Source: a virus
Lineage: Duplodnaviria; Heunggongvirae; Uroviricota; Caudoviricetes
Strand: one strand, 5' to 3'
DNA length: 40,602 nucleotides
Virus record (IMG/VR): IMGVR_UViG_2541047755_000009
Shown here: piece by piece, positions 1,150-35,467 of the stretch
Position numbering within the stretch: the stretch's first letter is position 1
How the letters are laid out: each line of letters opens with the position of its first letter
Translations under genes and position numbers: made by a program
The notes under the pieces: model-generated
What the model saw: only the letters and a program-made list of their open reading frames with translations
Database searches by the model: none
Told to the model about the DNA's origin: nothing

Positions 1150-1862
1150 GCCTATAAGGCTCTCTTACCAGCCGCGCCCTAACAGGCGCACACGATCTGA
1201 CATTTGCATCCAACTTCGTTACTTACGGCCCGTAAACGGGCTGCCCGGATAGGGAATCGATAACTGCTCTCCCATTTTATCCTCTTCAAGCTGGTGCTTT
1301 ATGTAATCCTGTATCTTCGCCGTGTTCTTACCCACTGTATCGACGTAGTACCCTCTGCACCAGAACTCCCTGTTCCTGTATTTGAATTTCAAATCACCAA
1401 ACTGCTCGTAAAGCATCAGACTGCTTTTCCCTTTCAGATATCCCATAAACCCGGATACGCTCATTTTAGGCGGGATCTCCACAAGCATATGGATATGATC
1501 TGCACAGCATTCAGCTTCCAGAATCCGTACGCTTTTCCACTCACACAGCTTTCTCAAAATACTGCCTATTGCTCTACGCTTCTCTCTGTAGAACACCTGT
1601 CTTCGGTATTTTGGCGCAAAAACTATGTGATATTTACAGTTCCATCGGGTGTGCGCTAAGCTCTTTTCGTTCCCCATTGGGACCCCCTTTTGATTTCTTG
1701 TTTGACACTTGCAGTTGCCAGACCGCAAGGTGTTTTAACAAATCAAAAGGGGTTTTAATAACTGGCTCAAAGCTGAAAGCTTTCCGGAACCCCCAGCCTA
1801 GCTGGGGGTTTTCTGTGCACAAAAAACCCTCTGTAGTAACAGAGGGTTTTGTTCATTCATAG
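1150..1862 (-). mobile_element. IS200 (IS200/IS605 family) insertion sequence; ends approximate
   Basis: tnpA with IS200 hallmark; terminator-like hairpin AAAACCCTCTG..CAGAGGGTTTT plus T-run near 1822-1850 on the tnpA strand; RBS-sequestering inverted repeat CCCCTTTTGATTT / AAATCAAAAGGGGG just 5' of the tnpA ATG; about 0.7 kb overall. Confidence 0.7.
1219..1677 (-). CDS. tnpA: IS200 transposase TnpA (Y1/HUH transposase)
   Basis: MGNEKSLAHTRWNCKYHIVFAPKYRR... is the IS200 TnpA N-terminus; HxH motif (HIHML); about 152 aa from the internal ATG at 1677. Confidence 0.9.
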   Translation of the reverse strand: MGNEKSLAHTRWNCKYHIVFAPKYRRQVFYREKRRAIGSILRKLCEWKSVRILEAECCADHIHMLVEIPPKMSVSGFMGYLKGKSSLMLYEQFGDLKFKYRNREFWCRGYYVDTVGKNTAKIQDYIKHQLEEDKMGEQLSIPYPGSPFTGRK

Positions 1863-2482: not shown

Positions 2483-3108
2483 ACCGCCAGCACCTTACTG
2501 GCATTGATGTATCGCGCGCGCCGGTCGTCGATGCCGTTCCGGCCACCATTGATAATCAGAGTTACACGTGCAATATCGCCGGTATACTTCATGCATCCTT
2601 TGCTGGCAAAGAACCACGCCGCGCTACGAGCCGCGTATTCGTCCTGCGCCAGCAGTTCAGGACTCTCCAGCAGGTCAACCTTAAGACCGTTTCCACAGTC
2701 ACGATAGTTATTCAAACCGGTAACCTGGATAAGCCCGCGCCCACGGTAGTTCCAGCCATCACCAGGGGCATTGTTCCCCATGCGTTTGCTGTACACCAGA
2801 TTGGCAATCGCTCTCTGGCGCTCAAGTGGCAATGGTGGTTCGCCTGCACGTCGCCCCAATGCGTTGGCCTGTCCCTGAGTGAGACGCCCAGCCCGAACAA
2901 AGTTAGCCAGTCCGCTGACGCTGTAGTTGAAATTCTCCTGCAACCGGGTGAAGCCTCCAGACTCATGCCCGACCTGAGCAATAAACATAGCCTGATCTTC
3001 TGGTTTGCTGATACCAAACTCTTTCATCGCAGAAGTTATATGCGAGAACCAGCGTGCGGCCAGTGCCTCGCTGATACCAGCAGCTCGCTGGAATTGTTTA
3101 ATCTCCAT
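2479..3108 (-). CDS. endolysin, glycoside hydrolase family 19 (chitinase-like)
   Basis: GH19 signatures [10 protein letters not shown] and [15 protein letters not shown]; GAGG RBS 8 nt upstream; no N-terminal TM segment so not a SAR endolysin. Confidence 0.85.
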
Positions 3109-6585: not shown

Positions 6586-6602
6586 ATTACCTTTCAGGTA
6601 AT
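6586..6602. promoter_or_regulatory. operator-like palindrome ATTACC-TTTCA-GGTAAT (site A)
   Basis: perfect 6+5+6 inverted repeat abutting a TTGCAA -35-like hexamer upstream of the 6678 gene. Confidence 0.55.
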
Positions 6603-6640: not shown

Positions 6641-6656
6641 CTGTATAAATATACAG
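6641..6656. promoter_or_regulatory. LexA (SOS) box
   Basis: taCTGTataaatatACAGtt, i.e. CTGT-N8-ACAG with AT-rich spacer, near-perfect to the enterobacterial LexA consensus; about 20 nt upstream of the GGAGAAG RBS / ATG at 6678. Confidence 0.8.
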
Positions 6657-6677: not shown

Positions 6678-6935
6678 ATGCAGCAGTATCACTATCCACT
6701 GGAAGACGGATTTACCGAAAGGATTCACACGCCGGGAGGCGTCAGGTCACTGGTGGAGGGATCGCACTTGATGAAATTACTCCGGGATCTCGATAAGGAT
6801 GGATTTAATGTCGATGGCCCACTTGCCGAACTGACTGCACTGATTAACTACGTCACCAGCTCACAGATGTCTATGCGGGATCTGCAAACACATCTCGACT
6901 ATTGTGCCGAACAATTACGAAAACAAACCAGATAA
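6678..6935 (+). CDS. small antirepressor-like protein (stand-alone copy of the Bro-N protein C-terminal domain)
   Basis: 85 aa; RBS GGAGAAG; about 75 aa align with the C-terminus of the 7249-7935 product (LMKLLRDLDKDGFNVDGPLAELT...RDLQTH versus LLMNLLNQLQEDGHDVSGAAAELT...RDIQTH). Confidence 0.65.
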   Translation: MQQYHYPLEDGFTERIHTPGGVRSLVEGSHLMKLLRDLDKDGFNVDGPLAELTALINYVTSSQMSMRDLQTHLDYCAEQLRKQTR

Positions 6936-6965
6936 GGTTTGCAATTGCCAAGTGGAGTGCTTATA

Positions 6966-6982
6966 TTTACCTTTGCGGTAAA
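6966..6982. promoter_or_regulatory. operator-like palindrome TTTACC-TTTGC-GGTAAA (site I) inside a GGAGTGC / GCACTCC hairpin
   Basis: same half-site family; sits in the 310-nt untranslated gap between the two antirepressor-like genes. Confidence 0.45.
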
Positions 6983-7248
6983 TTTACATCGCACTCCTCT
7001 TGTGCCATAGTAATCGGGCACTGGCAAAATCCAGTGCCGGGATTGGCGTCCCGAGTTACTACAGAGGCACATATGCCGCATAAGCGGTTTTTTTTATGTG
7101 TAAAGCGCACCTATTCTATGGTGGGCTGTGTGGGGGCACCGAAAGGTGCGCCGGGTCCTTTGTAGCCGGTTACGCCAACCCTGCACAGTTCACCACCAAC
7201 CGATTGGCGTCGGTAGTGGTGATTAACCTAACTACAAAGGTGATCACT

Positions 7249-7935
7249 ATGACTGCTAACGTAACCCCATCTGTTTTTCATTTTGAATCAGAAGCAACCA
7301 TTCGAGCCATTGTTATTGATGGAAATCCTTGGTTTGTTGCCAAAGACGTTATTAAAGCTCTTCAACTGACAAACCCCACTATGTCAATAAAATCTCTTGA
7401 TGATGATGAAAGGGCTAAATTTAACTTAGGCCGTCAAGGCGAAACCAATATTATCAACGAGTCAGGCCTCTACACACTGATCCTCCGCTGCCGCGATGCA
7501 GTAACACCAGGCACTATCCCCTACCGCTTTCGCAAATGGGTTACAGGTGAGGTTCTTCCTCAGATCCGCCGCACCGGAAGTTACATTAAAAACTCGCTCC
7601 CGCAGGAAGAACGCATAAAGATGGTTGCCGACCAGGTTGCAAACGCCACAGCATCAGCAGTGATGCAGGCAATGAAGATAGAGAACAAAACCTACAGCGC
7701 CCCACTGAAGCCCGGCTACCGCAGCCTGATTCATTCGCCGTCTGGTGTTCTCGGCCTGACGGAGAACTCACTGCTGATGAATTTGCTGAACCAGTTACAG
7801 GAAGACGGGCATGACGTATCGGGCGCGGCGGCGGAGCTGACTACCATGTTCTGCTACATCGTCGGTGTGAGCAAATGCCTGCGTGATATCCAGACGCACG
7901 CGGAGTACATCAACGACAAGGCAGGGTTCTTCTGA
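7249..7935 (+). CDS. phage antirepressor with Bro-N domain
   Basis: Bro-N signature IRAIVIDGNPWFVAKDVIKALQL; AAGGTGA RBS before ATG 7249; C-terminal domain shared with the 6678 gene. Confidence 0.8.
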   Translation: MTANVTPSVFHFESEATIRAIVIDGNPWFVAKDVIKALQLTNPTMSIKSLDDDERAKFNLGRQGETNIINESGLYTLILRCRDAVTPGTIPYRFRKWVTGEVLPQIRRTGSYIKNSLPQEERIKMVADQVANATASAVMQAMKIENKTYSAPLKPGYRSLIHSPSGVLGLTENSLLMNLLNQLQEDGHDVSGAAAELTTMFCYIVGVSKCLRDIQTHAEYINDKAGFF

Positions 7936-8007: not shown

Positions 8008-8024
8008 ATTACCTTAAAGGTAAA
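8008..8024. promoter_or_regulatory. operator-like palindrome ATTACC-TTAAA-GGTAAA (site B) with promoter-like TTGCAG / TACTAT hexamers
   Basis: sits between a putative -10 and the GAGGAGG RBS of the 8050 gene. Confidence 0.5.
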
Positions 8025-8049: not shown

Positions 8050-8259
8050 ATGGGATTTTGGTTCGCTCGTACAAAAACGAGGGATAATGCACCCAGCCCT
8101 CAGGCAAAAAATGCAGAAGTTCCGGCGTCAGCGCAGGTTAACAAGCGTGGTGGTGTGTATATCTCATCACAGCAAATTTCTGAGCTTCCTGAGGTTAAGG
8201 AGATGCGTCGTCTCGCTGCTGCAATCGTTAAACAGGATCTTGCCACTGTAAGGAAATAG
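8050..8259 (+). CDS. hypothetical small hydrophilic protein, first gene of accessory cassette
   Basis: strong RBS GAGGAGG then ATG; 69 aa; stop TAG overlaps the GTG start of the next gene (taGTG). Confidence 0.6.
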   Translation: MGFWFARTKTRDNAPSPQAKNAEVPASAQVNKRGGVYISSQQISELPEVKEMRRLAAAIVKQDLATVRK

Positions 8260-9125
8260 TGTTGTTAGCTCTTCTAATTATCCCCATTCTGGTTAGTGGT
8301 TATATTATGATAACCGCTAACCAGTATCATTATTTCCGTTTATACCGACATGAAGGCCAGCTTCTTTATATGAAAGTAGCTGCATTAGGTACATATTGCC
8401 TTGTTGCTTCGGTAATAATTGCCGCATTTATAAAATATAAATATCCTGATTTTCACCTAGTTCACGATATGGTGGAAACTTTTAATGTAACGTCAAAACC
8501 AGAAACAGATAGAATTTACATGTGGCTGCTTCTTCTCTCAGCCACATCCATTTGCTTCTCTTTGTGTTATGTGTCTGTTGTGTGGGTGAAAGATTTTCTT
8601 CTTGGTTGTTTTTATAAACGTGATATTTATGAGCAAAAAACAGAGGCAATGAAGGCCAGAGTACTGCGAAAAACTTACTCGCAAGGTTCTTTAGACTTAC
8701 TATTGCTTGATGCTATTGAATCGGATCCTAAACGACCAATGCTGATTACTTTATCATCAAACAAAGTGTATGTTGGAATAATAAATGGTTCTGGTGAACC
8801 AACGGAAAATCAGGGTCCGCATCAGCACATATCTTTTGTTCCTTTAATGTCAGGATACAGGAACAAAGACAACTTATCTGTCACATTCACTAATGCTTAT
8901 CCAGGAGAAATACAGGTCAAGCGGACTGCAGCAATAAGAGGAATTAGCAGAAAGAAAGTGCCAGGACTTGAGATCATGGTGTCTATTGACGAAATAAGTT
9001 ATATATCATGGTTTGATTTTGAAGTATATAAAGCAACAAATAACAAAGTAGAATCCAGGGGGCACGTTATTCGTGTTACCAAAAATGGAAGAAATATATA
9101 TCAAAGAAATAGCAAAAAAGAATAG
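8259..9125 (+). CDS. membrane-anchored protein, 3 N-terminal TM helices plus about 180-aa soluble domain (unknown function; exclusion/defense candidate)
   Basis: 288 aa; GTG start coupled to upstream stop; visibly AT-rich codon usage unlike the neighbouring phage genes; intrinsic terminator directly downstream. Confidence 0.65.
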   Translation: MLLALLIIPILVSGYIMITANQYHYFRLYRHEGQLLYMKVAALGTYCLVASVIIAAFIKYKYPDFHLVHDMVETFNVTSKPETDRIYMWLLLLSATSICFSLCYVSVVWVKDFLLGCFYKRDIYEQKTEAMKARVLRKTYSQGSLDLLLLDAIESDPKRPMLITLSSNKVYVGIINGSGEPTENQGPHQHISFVPLMSGYRNKDNLSVTFTNAYPGEIQVKRTAAIRGISRKKVPGLEIMVSIDEISYISWFDFEVYKATNNKVESRGHVIRVTKNGRNIYQRNSKKE

Positions 9126-26315: not shown

Positions 26316-26392
26316 GTGGCATTAGCTCAGTTGGACAGAGCAACCGCCTTCTAAGCGGTTGGTCGCAGGTTCGAATCCTGCATGCCACGCCA
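26316..26392 (+). tRNA. tRNA-Arg, anticodon UCU (reads AGA)
   Basis: 77 nt cloverleaf: acceptor GTGGCAT / ATGCCAC, D-stem GCTC / GAGC with A20, anticodon stem ACCGC / GCGGT, loop CTTCTAA, T-arm GCAGG-TTCGAAT-CCTGC, G73, encoded CCA. Confidence 0.9.
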
Positions 26393-27057: not shown

Positions 27058-28533
27058 TTAAGCATAGGGATCGTAATCTGTAATGGCCTTGCCTTGCTGG
27101 TTCTGCTGACCGGGAATTCGCAGACGCTTCGACACCGGGAAAGCAAACGTCAGCAGTAGCGCATCGCCTTTACCCGGCGAACGCCCAAGCCGCTCCTTGA
27201 TATCTTCCTTCGGTTCGATAACGATTTTACCGTCCACGCGAACTTTGTACTCTGCCGCCGACAGGTCGTCCGCTGTTTCCTGGTCATCCAGCATGCCGCC
27301 CAGCCTCAGCCATGTCTTGCATGCATTGAACATCTCCCCACGCTTGTTAAGCATCTGCGGGTCAGTGGACGCACCGCCGAACGGAACAAGTTGCCATGTA
27401 CGTCCCCAGCCATCACCGATTGACTTCAAACCGGTTCCGTAACCGAAGTCGATGAACACCGCGTCAGCCTGGTACTGGTCTTCAAAGTCAGCGATACGCT
27501 TCGCCATAATCAGATCGTCGGTGGTCTTGTTGCCAGTCCATAGCACCTTACTATGCAACCCCTGCCGCAGGTATATCACCGCGTCATCAACGCCTGAATA
27601 TGCCGGGTCAACACCGATTATCACCGGTGCATGTGCCACCTGCGCAGCAGTTACCACCCGTTTCATTGCCTCGTCAGTAAGACCGGTAGGGATAAACTGC
27701 AATTCAGATGCATTAGGGAATATGCCGCGTACACGGATTTTAACGAAGTCGCTGTCTTCCCCGTAGTCATCAACCCATTTCTGCAATTGCTGCTTGTTAG
27801 TACCTTCCACCGTCCGGCTGTCAATCTGCGCAGTTTTCCAGCGGTGTTTATATTTGCGGAAACATTCACGGAATCGCCCGGTATTACGTGTCGGGTTTCC
27901 GAACGCCACCCAGATAATCTCAGTGTCTTCGTCCGTTAGCGCACCTTCGGCAACTTCCCACACCAGATCCGCAATGTTCGACGCTTCATCGAATACCACG
28001 ATAATACGTTTGCGCTCGTTGTGTAGTCCGGCGAATGCCTCAGTGTTGTGCTCAGACCAGGGAATTGCGTCAGCTCGCCACCGCTTGTCGTGCCCAGGAT
28101 CATTGCTGTACATCGCGGTAGCGGTACAGGTAAACCAGTCTTTCGTGATAGCAAGGTTGGACCACTTGATAATTTCCGGCCAGGTCTTCGTTCGTAGCTG
28201 GTTGTCGGTGTTGGCGGTCACCACGACCTTACAATCCTCGCAAGTGGACATGCCCCAGTTGATCAGCATTGAGATGAATGCGGATTTACCAATACCGTGA
28301 CCAGAAGCACGTGCCAGCATAAGCGGCTGATAGCGCGTCTCTGGATTCTGCAGATGATCACGTATCTCTCGGAACGCATCGGCCTGCCACTGACGTGGAC
28401 CGGTGGCATGTGCCAGTTCAGTACCCTCTTCCCCCCACGGGAACGCATAGAGGGCATAGCCAAGCGGATCGTGAGTGAACCCTGCAATATCCTCGATCAA
28501 CTGCTCTTCAGGAGATAACGCTGTATCTGTCAC
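27058..28533 (-). CDS. terminase large subunit
   Basis: Walker A-like ARASGHGIGKS; about 490 aa; GTG start overlapping the small-subunit stop. Confidence 0.85.
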   Translation of the reverse strand: MTDTALSPEEQLIEDIAGFTHDPLGYALYAFPWGEEGTELAHATGPRQWQADAFREIRDHLQNPETRYQPLMLARASGHGIGKSAFISMLINWGMSTCEDCKVVVTANTDNQLRTKTWPEIIKWSNLAITKDWFTCTATAMYSNDPGHDKRWRADAIPWSEHNTEAFAGLHNERKRIIVVFDEASNIADLVWEVAEGALTDEDTEIIWVAFGNPTRNTGRFRECFRKYKHRWKTAQIDSRTVEGTNKQQLQKWVDDYGEDSDFVKIRVRGIFPNASELQFIPTGLTDEAMKRVVTAAQVAHAPVIIGVDPAYSGVDDAVIYLRQGLHSKVLWTGNKTTDDLIMAKRIADFEDQYQADAVFIDFGYGTGLKSIGDGWGRTWQLVPFGGASTDPQMLNKRGEMFNACKTWLRLGGMLDDQETADDLSAAEYKVRVDGKIVIEPKEDIKERLGRSPGKGDALLLTFAFPVSKRLRIPGQQNQQGKAITDYDPYA

Positions 28534-29126
28534 TGATTACCATCCTGACGTTCTTTGAGTCGCTTCCTGGCTGCTGCTATGCGATCAGCAATTGTCACAT
28601 TCACATTAACATCCAGACGTTCTTTGAACGCGTTGACATCAACATGCTTACCAATCAGTTCTAGGTTCTTCACCTTGTCAGGCCATTTAATTTTTTTGAG
28701 GATTGTCTCTATCGAATCCTCGTTCATGTTCATGATGGTCGATGACAGATCAAAGCCACTAAGCGTAGTGCGCCAGATTTTCGGCCACTCACGGATTGGT
28801 TTAAGGCTCCCATCGTCGTTGAGGATATCGATCACGTCCATCTGGTCGATCTCCACCAAGCGCATGAGAACGTAATCAGCACTGACGCGCATTCGTTTGT
28901 TGCGCTCCTCCATCAACTCGGCAATCCGTTTTTGAATGCGTTCATCGCGCATCATGACACTGGCTTTAACTGCCGCTGTATTTGGGGAGAATCCTGCGTT
29001 AATCGCTGCCTGAGTCTGGTTTTCAGGCGTTTTGATGTATGACTGGCAATAAGCCTCCTGCATTGCTGTGAGCGGCTTAAATTGCGTTGATTTGCGTTTA
29101 TAGGTTTTAGGTTCAGCAGGCATCAT
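28530..29126 (-). CDS. terminase small subunit
   Basis: about 198 aa from the ATG doublet near 29126 (track ORF extends to a TTG at 29204 without RBS); directly upstream of and coupled to the large subunit. Confidence 0.6.
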   Translation of the reverse strand: MMPAEPKTYKRKSTQFKPLTAMQEAYCQSYIKTPENQTQAAINAGFSPNTAAVKASVMMRDERIQKRIAELMEERNKRMRVSADYVLMRLVEIDQMDVIDILNDDGSLKPIREWPKIWRTTLSGFDLSSTIMNMNEDSIETILKKIKWPDKVKNLELIGKHVDVNAFKERLDVNVNVTIADRIAAARKRLKERQDGNQ

Positions 29127-29236
29127 AACCACCGTGGTAATAGTTACCGTTGTGGTAATAGTACCATGCAAAATAAAGCCGCCATAGTTGGCGGCAGTAT
29201 TCAAAACCCGTCAAATTCATCATGCATAATCTACTC

Positions 29237-34882: not shown

Positions 34883-35467
34883 ATGAAAAGTATCCAGGAC
34901 GTCCGCAGGCAAAATCTCAACGACTTGATCGACCGTGAATTCAATGGTGTTCAGACGCGGATGGCAGAAAAACTTGGAACTCAGGCAAATCTGGTAAACC
35001 GCTGGGCTCTTGGCAAGAAGGTTATCGGCGACCAGGTTGCACGAAAAATTGAAGCTGCCGCCAATAAACCCCGTAACTGGCTTGATATTGATCGCTCGCT
35101 TTCTCAGGAGGGTTTTCAGCCTGTCGGCCCGAGCGATATAGGTCAGCTGGCGGCTCACAACCTGGAACGCTGGATGAGCGAAAGCCGCGACCTTTCAACG
35201 CAGGGAAAACTACACCGCGCATCCGGCGTCGCCCAGGTGACAATCAGCCGCCTGTTAAACAATGAGGTCAGCGTTTCCATTTCCACCCTGGAGAATGTTG
35301 CATCCGCATTCGGGCGTCACGGCTATGAATTACTGATTCACCCGCACGACCCTGCGACCATCAACTATGATCGCTCGCGCTACGCATTGTTACCCGAAAC
35401 CGAGAAAGCAAAGATCGAAAGTTACATTGAATTTGTCATCAACCAGAACGAAAAAAACAAACAATAA
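34883..35467 (+). CDS. prophage repressor, dual HTH, no S24 peptidase domain
   Basis: XRE-type HTH QTRMAEKLGTQANLVNRWALGKK plus a second HTH-like segment; no Ser/Lys autocleavage module at 194 aa; divergent from the Cro-like gene across the operator cluster. Confidence 0.7.
   Translation: MKSIQDVRRQNLNDLIDREFNGVQTRMAEKLGTQANLVNRWALGKKVIGDQVARKIEAAANKPRNWLDIDRSLSQEGFQPVGPSDIGQLAAHNLERWMSESRDLSTQGKLHRASGVAQVTISRLLNNEVSVSISTLENVASAFGRHGYELLIHPHDPATINYDRSRYALLPETEKAKIESYIEFVINQNEKNKQ

Follow-up and report, generated by a model that had tools for sequence, protein, structure and literature searches.

The locus analyzed here has its closest described counterparts in the immI region of phages P1 and P7 and in the isrK-orf45-anrP locus of the Salmonella prophage Gifsy-1; both the P1 c4 system and Gifsy-1 IsrK are already published, and Rfam holds all three of the models involved (isrK, C4 and c4-a1b1). 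The parts of P1/P7 immI (c4 - icd - ant1/ant2) come in the same order as those of our locus, the P1 annotation running from Oc4, which lies over the -35, through a1, b1, C4, a2, b2 and icd to ant1. In P1, a1 (TTGACAG) sits in a hairpin loop and b1 (GTTAGTG) in a linker, the 77-nt, three-helix C4 RNA carries b' in a hairpin loop and a' in a junction, and b2 lies ten bases before the icd start. P1 C4 is processed by RNase P from a longer transcript.

The Gifsy-1 locus (Hershko-Shalev et al., 2016, PMC4825925) produces a 77-nt IsrK with the same hairpins and terminator as our locus, and has both the read-through into an antirepressor gene that we predict for ours and, as here, a C4-type RNA downstream (STnc1160). 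In that prophage IsrK supplied in trans raised antirepressor translation 139-fold, the stable STnc1160 RNA downstream of IsrK depended on the isrK promoter, and two compensatory pairs of mutations, G28A/C162U and G31A/C159U, confirmed a helix termed b-I (PMC4825925). The same paper does not treat the downstream RNA as a C4 repressor of the P1 type (PMC4825925). Similarly, the APSE phages of Hamiltonella have our layout, with a KilA-N antirepressor-like gene, isrK, C4 and a Bro-N gene, and their authors pointed out that the sequence preceding the Bro-N gene is matched by the antisense regions (PMC7313666). In GenBank, the APSE entries carry annotations for isrK, C4, a', b' and the Bro-N gene, ordered as here, and use a' for the loop and b' for the junction, which the P1 record has the other way round; DNA identity to our locus is only ~70% and the a/b alleles differ.

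Two further systems bear comparison. In the temperate enterobacterial phage P22, ant synthesis is limited by the sar RNA, a true cis-antisense transcript of the opposite strand, unlike the elements of our locus, which all lie on the same strand. The P4 CI RNA is a processed, stable leader RNA that pairs with seqA and seqC up- and downstream of it, as C4 would here, and P4 SeqA has been called a structural homolog of IsrK by the Gifsy-1 authors (PMC4825925), but in P4 the pairing ends transcription of replication genes prematurely and does not occlude an antirepressor ribosome-binding site.

Here we analyze a 310-nt gap in a 40,602-nucleotide caudoviricete sequence (IMG/VR record IMGVR_UViG_2541047755_000009; this whole stretch is called the window below). 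The gap is most probably the leader of the ant operon in a phiV10/epsilon15-like prophage, built like P1 immI, with C4 repressing ant through two target sites, a2 and b2. Its hairpins are real, functional and ordinary, forming an IsrK and C4 module of a known kind, and what sets it apart from the known systems is mainly the absence of a short upstream ORF.

Genomic context

The region matches phiV10/epsilon15-like E. coli podophages of the genus Uetakevirus at 93-97% identity, and related sequence is found in 941 of 5426 complete E. coli genomes, at up to 3 places per genome. First in the gene order comes a minus-strand tail-fibre/tailspike gene, followed by a LexA box, an 85-aa gene, the 310-nt gap and a Bro-N gene. 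The features that flank the gap are:

6641-6656, plus strand: LexA box CTGTATAAATATACAG, of the pattern CTGT-N8-ACAG; context, outside the RNA module
6678-6935, plus strand: mini-Ant gene (85 aa); its product stands alone and is homologous to the C-terminal domain of the Bro-N antirepressor
7249-7935, plus strand: ant, the Bro-N antirepressor gene (Bro-N domain, E = 5e-20) and the proposed regulated target

A previous reading made from the sequence only had placed the gap between two antirepressor-like genes, which is a fair description given that mini-Ant aligns with the last ~80 residues of Ant at 41% identity (residues 147-224; E = 2e-16) and that both proteins match antirepressor-linked PHROG families (phrog_450 and phrog_1760 'anti-repressor' for mini-Ant, phrog_130 'anti-repressor Ant' for Ant). 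Among the differences from P1 immI are the identity of the window Ant as a Bro-N protein and the presence of a LexA-controlled mini-Ant gene upstream. In the related phage vB_EcoP_ZX5, overexpression of the Bro-N antirepressor led to less lysogeny (PMC9782041).

Operator and promoter

Three DNA features precede the RNA module:

6954-6997, no strand: outer inverted repeat GGAGTGC (6954-6960) / GCACTCC (6991-6997), enclosing the operator
6965-6983, no strand: operator palindrome ATTTACC-TTTGC-GGTAAAT, one of 13 phage copies
6983-7011, plus strand: promoter-like site with -35 TTTACA (6983-6988), a 17-nt spacer and -10 CATAGT (7006-7011)

Where 0.78 copies of the palindrome core, TTACC-N5-GGTAA, would be expected, the window has 13, and those that were checked against the ORF lists are intergenic. 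Relatives keep the half-sites and let the 5-nt spacer vary freely, which is the signature of a protein-binding site and not of an RNA stem. On this sequence pattern, the palindrome at 6965-6983 is a probable binding site of the prophage repressor, for which the HTH_3 protein encoded at 34883-35467 is a candidate. It adjoins the -35, with its centre at about -44 from the predicted transcription start; the P1 C1 operator Oc4 also lies at a -35, that of the c4 promoter, and is unrelated to it in sequence. A divergent pair at 29126/29144 was considered as a cI/cro switch and set aside, the ORF at 28530-29204 being the small terminase subunit.

An operator-like site within a GGAGTGC/GCACTCC stem had been proposed earlier as one element of the hairpin-rich region. 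The palindrome does lie inside that repeat, yet with its 13 copies it is a DNA operator and no part of the RNA. The outer repeat can form a hairpin of -18.4 kcal/mol (z = -5.4 for 6950-7000 against dinucleotide shuffles), and in phiV10 the whole operator element is a perfect 41-bp palindrome, but the outer repeat is not a conserved pair, its left arm being missing in 41 of 79 close relatives.

The sigma-70-like promoter has 9 of 12 matches and an extended -10 TG (7003-7004). Across 55 relatives neither the -10 hexamer nor the TG varies, the -35 hardly does, and the predicted transcription start, at about 7018, coincides with position 1 of the isrK model.

This promoter bears on the suggestion that the region sets Ant levels once the LexA-controlled gene is on. 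The LexA box, one of three CTGT-N8-ACAG sites in the whole window, lies ~20 nt 5' of ATG 6678 (judged by eye), and a scan of 6935-7018 found no terminator, so that read-through from the LexA-controlled gene is possible in the window. Such an arrangement is not conserved among relatives: in 36 of the 79 close relatives the LexA box and mini-Ant are missing within 450 nt upstream of the leader, most of these having a LexA box ~1.19 kb upstream, and in one locus a 242-aa ORF on the opposite strand lies in the space between LexA box and leader. Co-transcription with the LexA-controlled gene is thus not obligatory and, since the leader has its own invariant promoter and the LexA box and mini-Ant are often not close upstream in relatives, the ant leader is best regarded as an autonomous unit.

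IsrK and C4 RNAs

An Rfam scan of the whole window finds two family members in the gap:

7018-7094, plus strand: IsrK small RNA (RF01394), also the 5' part of the ant leader
7114-7200, plus strand: C4 antisense RNA (RF01695)

Both matches span their models in full (positions 1-77 of 77 for isrK, 1-87 of 87 for C4) and exceed the gathering scores of 50 and 45, with 74.2 bits for IsrK and 79.5 bits for C4. A scan of the minus strand with Rfam gave no match. With laxer filters the c4-a1b1 motif (RF03163) appears at 7005-7057 with 44.3 bits, below its gathering score of 46.7; despite this sub-threshold score its functional feature is present, with a1 and b1 complementary to a' and b'. The same models give P1 68.8 bits for C4, against 79.5 for the window, together with 51.0 bits for the a1b1 region and an isrK-like match of 35 bits, against 74 bits in the window, where the terminator between b1 and C4 is strong. 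The 'Hfq-binding' name of isrK stems from co-immunoprecipitation in Salmonella.

IsrK begins with hairpin 1 (7018-7037) and hairpin 2 (7038-7053), which are followed by a single-stranded linker and the terminator. Hairpin 1 is a strong stem-loop of GCACTGG (7018-7024) with CCAGTGC (7031-7037), to which an 8-bp form adds the pair G7017-C7038, and the terminator consists of GCCGC (7075-7079) with GCGGT (7084-7088) and the T8 tract at 7088-7095. All the features of an IsrK locus are present, namely two 5' hairpins, a linker, an intrinsic terminator with its U-tract and a Bro-N gene downstream. C4 has a closing helix (7119-7135 with 7179-7195) that encloses two hairpins (7136-7149 and 7150-7170), and its minimum-free-energy fold equals the family structure.

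The four structures that the sequence-only reading had described are therefore all in the sequence, with coordinates off by a few bases: in the light of the Rfam matches its strong stem-loop and T8 tract are hairpin 1 and the terminator of IsrK, and its GCACC-GAAA-GGTGC hairpin (7136-7149) is the first inner arm of C4. Its suggestion of an attenuator or small RNA that sets how much Bro-N antirepressor is made holds in that the region contains small RNAs with an intrinsic terminator and almost certainly does set the amount of the antirepressor; the region is not an uncharacterized attenuator, isrK and C4 both being Rfam families.

Folding and covariation across relatives bear the structures out. 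Compared with dinucleotide shuffles, the folds of IsrK (7018-7094; z = -3.0), of C4 (7114-7200; z = -3.6) and of the whole leader (7018-7265; z = -5.15) are all more stable. A pattern scan of viral contigs yielded a diverse set of ~90 distinct loci with the same layout. In about 75 diverse relatives the structures are kept with compensatory changes: pairing in the IsrK hairpins stands at 95.4% and 7 of their 12 pairs show double changes (74 sequences), and 97.5% of the C4 cells are paired, with 20 of 27 pairs changed on both sides (75 sequences). Controls for C4 were far lower, slid alignments giving 37-47% paired and shuffled ones likewise lower values. Because the scan pattern prescribes the loop of hairpin 1 and the TT with which a1 begins, neither that loop, an invariant CAAAAU, nor that TT carries evidence.

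By alignment to the annotated 77-nt P1 C4, the mature C4 of the window is predicted to span ~7120-7197 (~78 nt). These predicted ends would leave a 3' ACC overhang, as the annotated ends of P1 C4 do, and the RNA is probably excised from the leader by RNase P.

Complementarity between C4, IsrK and the ant ribosome-binding site

Six short sites connect the two RNAs with the start of ant. We name them after the P1 GenBank record, in which b' is the C4 loop and a' the C4 junction:

7043-7049, plus strand: a1 TTGGCGT, loop of IsrK hairpin 2; exact 7-nt complement of a'
7059-7067, plus strand: b1 CTACAGAGG, IsrK linker; 9 pairs with b', one of them G-U
7157-7165, plus strand: b' CCTTTGTAG, loop of the second C4 hairpin; exact 9-nt complement of 7232-7240
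7172-7178, plus strand: a' ACGCCAA, single-stranded C4 junction; exact complement of 7043-7049 and 7204-7210
7204-7210, plus strand: a2 TTGGCGT, on a mini-hairpin CCGA/TCGG (7200-7213); complement of a'
7232-7240, plus strand: b2 CTACAAAGG, overlapping the ant Shine-Dalgarno sequence; complement of b'

The window lacks icd, the 73-codon upstream gene of P1, so that b2 falls on the Shine-Dalgarno sequence of ant itself (AAGG, 7237-7240), ending 8 nt upstream of the start codon ATG 7249. For illustration, a mutant in which b2 is altered could be designed as CTACAAAGG to CTAGAAAGG. Matches of this quality are rare by chance: the 9-nt match of b' with b2 was reached in 14 of 20000 shuffles of the flank, each of the 7-nt matches of a' in ~0.6-0.7% of shuffles, and both downstream matches together in 0 of 20000. 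Nowhere else in the window are the two target motifs combined; each turns up there only as a lone site, giving no sign of further C4 targets.

The pairings covary. Several specificity types exist among close relatives, some of them with an Ant protein match of ~100% identity, and in each type all three partners change together: the loop CCTTTTAG comes with CTAAAAGG twice, the loop CCACTTAG with CTAAGTGG twice, the junction GTGCAAA with TTTGCAC twice and the junction AGACCAA with TTGGTCT twice. Over 55 close relatives, pairing of a'/b' with a2/b2 is kept at 95% and pairing of a'/b' with a1/b1 at 100%, each with 5 pairs changed on both sides, compared with 19-46% in slid controls for the C4-target and C4-IsrK pairings. 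Taken helix by helix, a'-a2 keeps 100% pairing, and 4 of its 7 pairs have changed in both strands; a'-a1 also keeps 100% pairing in the 55 relatives, where compensatory changes affect 4 of its 7 positions; and b'-b1 is likewise 100% paired in the 55, with b1 changing together with b' and b2 from one specificity type to another. This three-way covariation is a comparative argument for a competition in which IsrK, through a1/b1, and the ant ribosome-binding site would bind the same surfaces of C4.

The ~90 diverse loci show the same specificity. Counting a complement of at least 7 nt, we compared cognate with non-cognate combinations of C4 site and partner region:

C4 loop (b') with sequence downstream of C4: cognate 82%, non-cognate 5.6%
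C4 junction (a') with sequence downstream of C4: cognate 92%, non-cognate 4.9%
C4 junction (a') with IsrK: cognate 97%, non-cognate 1.6%
C4 loop (b') with IsrK: cognate 54%, non-cognate 2.8%

In the 73 of 90 loci where a start codon could be called, it lies within ~16 nt of the end of the b2 site. Among ten downstream proteins sampled, seven have antirepressor-type N-terminal domains, one is RadC and two have no Pfam match; the antirepressor-type domains found downstream of the cassette are Bro-N, ORF6N, KilA-N, Rha, P22_AR_N and AntA.

Coding potential of the gap

The sequence-only reading had regarded the hairpin-rich region as untranslated, and relatives agree with this: no conserved ORF is found across them in the gap, the stretch between C4 and ant included, and the frames from ATG 7096 and ATG 7119 are variable. 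That the gap is instead coding sequence, for a small protein or for an Ant with a longer N terminus, and that its hairpins are incidental, is extremely improbable. In the window the ORF 7096-7935 is indeed open and in frame with ant, extending it by 51 codons from ATG 7096, but no Shine-Dalgarno sequence precedes 7096, which lies directly 3' of the T8 tract, the 51-residue extension has no Pfam match, relatives carry indels in this stretch and one group of them has a stop after two codons (ATG CGT TAA), and RNA-style covariation accounts for the conservation. With neither frames nor stops conserved, and with no Pfam match, we dropped the idea of a coding gap.

A second frame, starting at ATG 7119 inside C4, matters for the mechanism published for Gifsy-1, in which a1 and a' form a lock in cis, IsrK acting in trans opens the ribosome-binding site of a short ORF whose AUG lies in the C4 5' strand, and translation of that ORF is coupled to ant. 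Judged on sequence, helix b-I of Gifsy-1 (G28-C162 and G31-C159) is exactly the P1-type a1:a' pairing, a clarification and not a new principle, and one locus (L085) has all the Gifsy-1 landmarks, namely C18, G28, G31, AUGs 107 and 119, C159, C162, G173 and a 45-codon ORF. The window likewise has a full-length IsrK, the a1:a' pairing that compensatory mutations validated in Gifsy-1, and an AUG at 7119 placed as the orf45 start is. Yet the 45 codons of orf45 are not conserved: the window ORF has 15 codons and ends at TAG 7163-7165, inside the b' loop and ~84 nt before the ant start, which does not allow coupling. The length of this ORF varies between 3 and 199 codons over 88 loci, and its stop overlaps the start of the downstream gene in only 3 of 63. 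We reject coupling of the orf45 type for the window, where the equivalent ORF stops inside the b' loop, and consider the Gifsy-1 mechanism as published very unlikely to operate here.

Proposed mechanism of ant control

In the reading that we favor, direct repression of ant by C4, transcription would start at ~7018 from the promoter (-35 at 6983, -10 at 7006) beside the probable repressor operator, and most transcripts would end at the T8 terminator to give the 77-nt IsrK. Transcripts that read through would carry C4 (~7120-7197), which would be cut out as a stable, tRNA-like RNA and, acting in trans, would pair through a' and b' with a2 and b2 on the ant mRNA. Because b2 covers the Shine-Dalgarno sequence, ribosomes could then not load and Ant would not be made, a silencing that would spare the prophage repressor. 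C4 would also block the Ant of superinfecting phages with the same a/b alleles. For a direct block of ant translation by C4 we found no experimental precedent in the literature examined, since in both studied systems a short ORF (icd or orf45) relays control.

Control might instead be mainly transcriptional, with C4 binding a1/b1 and a2/b2 on the nascent leader to cause premature termination, in the manner of P4 CI or through Rho-dependent polarity; the region would then be an attenuator as the sequence-only reading had suggested. Loss of icd translation in P1 leads to Rho-dependent termination upstream of ant. The window has a strong intrinsic terminator between b1 and C4, and in Gifsy-1 IsrK in trans raised an anrP transcriptional fusion 8-fold, its authors likening P4 SeqA to IsrK and weighing a termination role for STnc1160 (PMC4825925). 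However, the predicted folds hold no convincing antiterminator alternative to the IsrK terminator, which forms whether or not a1/b1 are free, and the effect on translation in Gifsy-1 was 139-fold as against 8-fold on transcription. Moreover, b2 lies on the Shine-Dalgarno sequence in most loci, pointing to translation as the primary target, and we regard mainly transcriptional control as unlikely.

Within the direct-repression reading, IsrK carries look-alikes of the target sites, a1 and b1, and may therefore compete for C4. With stronger firing of the promoter, IsrK, made from every transcript, would outnumber C4, made from read-through transcripts only, and Ant would be released. On whether IsrK acts as such a decoy we are nearly evenly divided, leaning slightly against. 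Somewhat more tentatively, we put forward a broader proposal in which IsrK would be a C4 sponge, the IsrK:C4 ratio would set a sharp threshold for Ant, and the many covarying a/b alleles would serve as barcodes by which several co-resident prophages could govern their respective antirepressors free of cross-talk. If true, this would unify P1, where C4 is known as a repressor, with Gifsy-1, where IsrK is known as an activator, systems that the literature examined treats as separate.

Annotation of the leader RNAs

The records of phiV10, Tyrion and TL-2011b contain no RNA annotation for this region, and no RNA features underlie the RefSeq E. coli matches among the matches listed. Annotating these RNAs would keep such leaders from being flagged as unknown. 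The vB_EcoP_ZX5 paper mentions neither antisense RNA nor LexA and left open how the Bro-N antirepressor is silenced (PMC9782041), a point that the C4 leader would explain for this phage group.

One further conserved element falls outside the mechanism proposed above:

7216-7222, plus strand: GTGGTGA, complementary to the 3' strand of the C4 closing helix, TCACCAC (7190-7196)

Pairing of GTGGTGA with this strand would permit an alternative hairpin that displays a2. The element is mostly conserved, so that the helix it forms with the C4 3' strand shows little covariation, and a complementarity of at least 7 nt between the two is found in 80% of the 90 loci.

Operator-like palindrome across the phage

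The palindromic motif TTACC-N5-GGTAA has 13 copies in the window, against 0.78 expected (positions 6587, 6967, 8009, 25972, 29126, 29144, 32420, 32482, 34428, 34765, 34813, 35525 and 35587), and those copies that were checked occupy intergenic positions. These copies have the look of operators for the prophage repressor, distributed as a set over many promoters, and would in this respect resemble the operators of P1 C1, which are likewise spread over many promoters. The HTH_3 gene at 34883-35467 is flanked by two pairs of palindrome copies and is a likely candidate for the prophage repressor gene.

The copy at 8009 precedes two ORFs located 3' of the Bro-N antirepressor gene ant:

8050-8259, ORF of 69 aa, phrog_5739
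8259-9125, ORF of 288 aa, without a Pfam match

In the related phage phiV10 (L001, ~2955-3000), the operator and the outer repeat surrounding it read as a perfect 41-bp palindrome, GGAGTGCTTATATTTACC-GCAAA-GGTAAATATAAGCACTCC. The -35 hexamer of the window, TTTACA, is altered in phiV10.

A possible second antirepressor gene upstream of the leader

The 85-aa gene at 6678-6935, which has a LexA box on its 5' side, encodes mini-Ant, a free-standing protein that corresponds to the C-terminal domain of the Bro-N antirepressor, with 41% identity. This arrangement suggests that the phage may possess two separately controlled antirepressors, one governed by SOS and the other by C4.

In the related locus L007, the mini-Ant gene is separated from the isrK promoter by a 242-aa ORF on the opposite strand (378-1106, minus). 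Besides L007, the LexA box and mini-Ant gene are also absent within 450 nt upstream in 35 other close relatives, and the mini-Ant/isrK-promoter junction in L007 and these 35 relatives looks like the site of a moron-type insertion.

Additional pairing and loop variation in the leader

Between a2 and b2, the two sites 5' of the ant start that are complementary to C4, the sequence GTGGTGA (7216-7222) matches, as its reverse complement, the 3' strand (7190-7196) of the helix that closes C4, and this complementarity was found in 80% of 90 related loci. Pairing of GTGGTGA with the C4 3' strand would form an alternative hairpin displaying a2, a pairing that is unaccounted for in any of the published models.

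The loop of IsrK hairpin 1, otherwise invariant as CAAAAT, is ATTTTG in three relatives (L006:1148-1447, L015 and L016), where the hairpin loop appears to have been inverted with its stem retained.

Distribution in E. coli and other RNA matches in the phage

Sequence related to the leader is present in 941 of 5426 complete E. coli genomes, at no more than three places per genome. Among the annotated features under the E. coli matches listed, the RNAs are unnamed, and only the Bro-N gene is named.

Two further RNA matches lie in the phage:

26316-26392, plus strand, phage-borne tRNA-Arg, anticodon UCT (both Rfam and ARAGORN)
1687-1810, minus strand, STnc490 Hfq-binding RNA (full-length Rfam match, 146 bits versus a gathering score of 56)

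The STnc490 match sits elsewhere in the phage, away from the ant leader.
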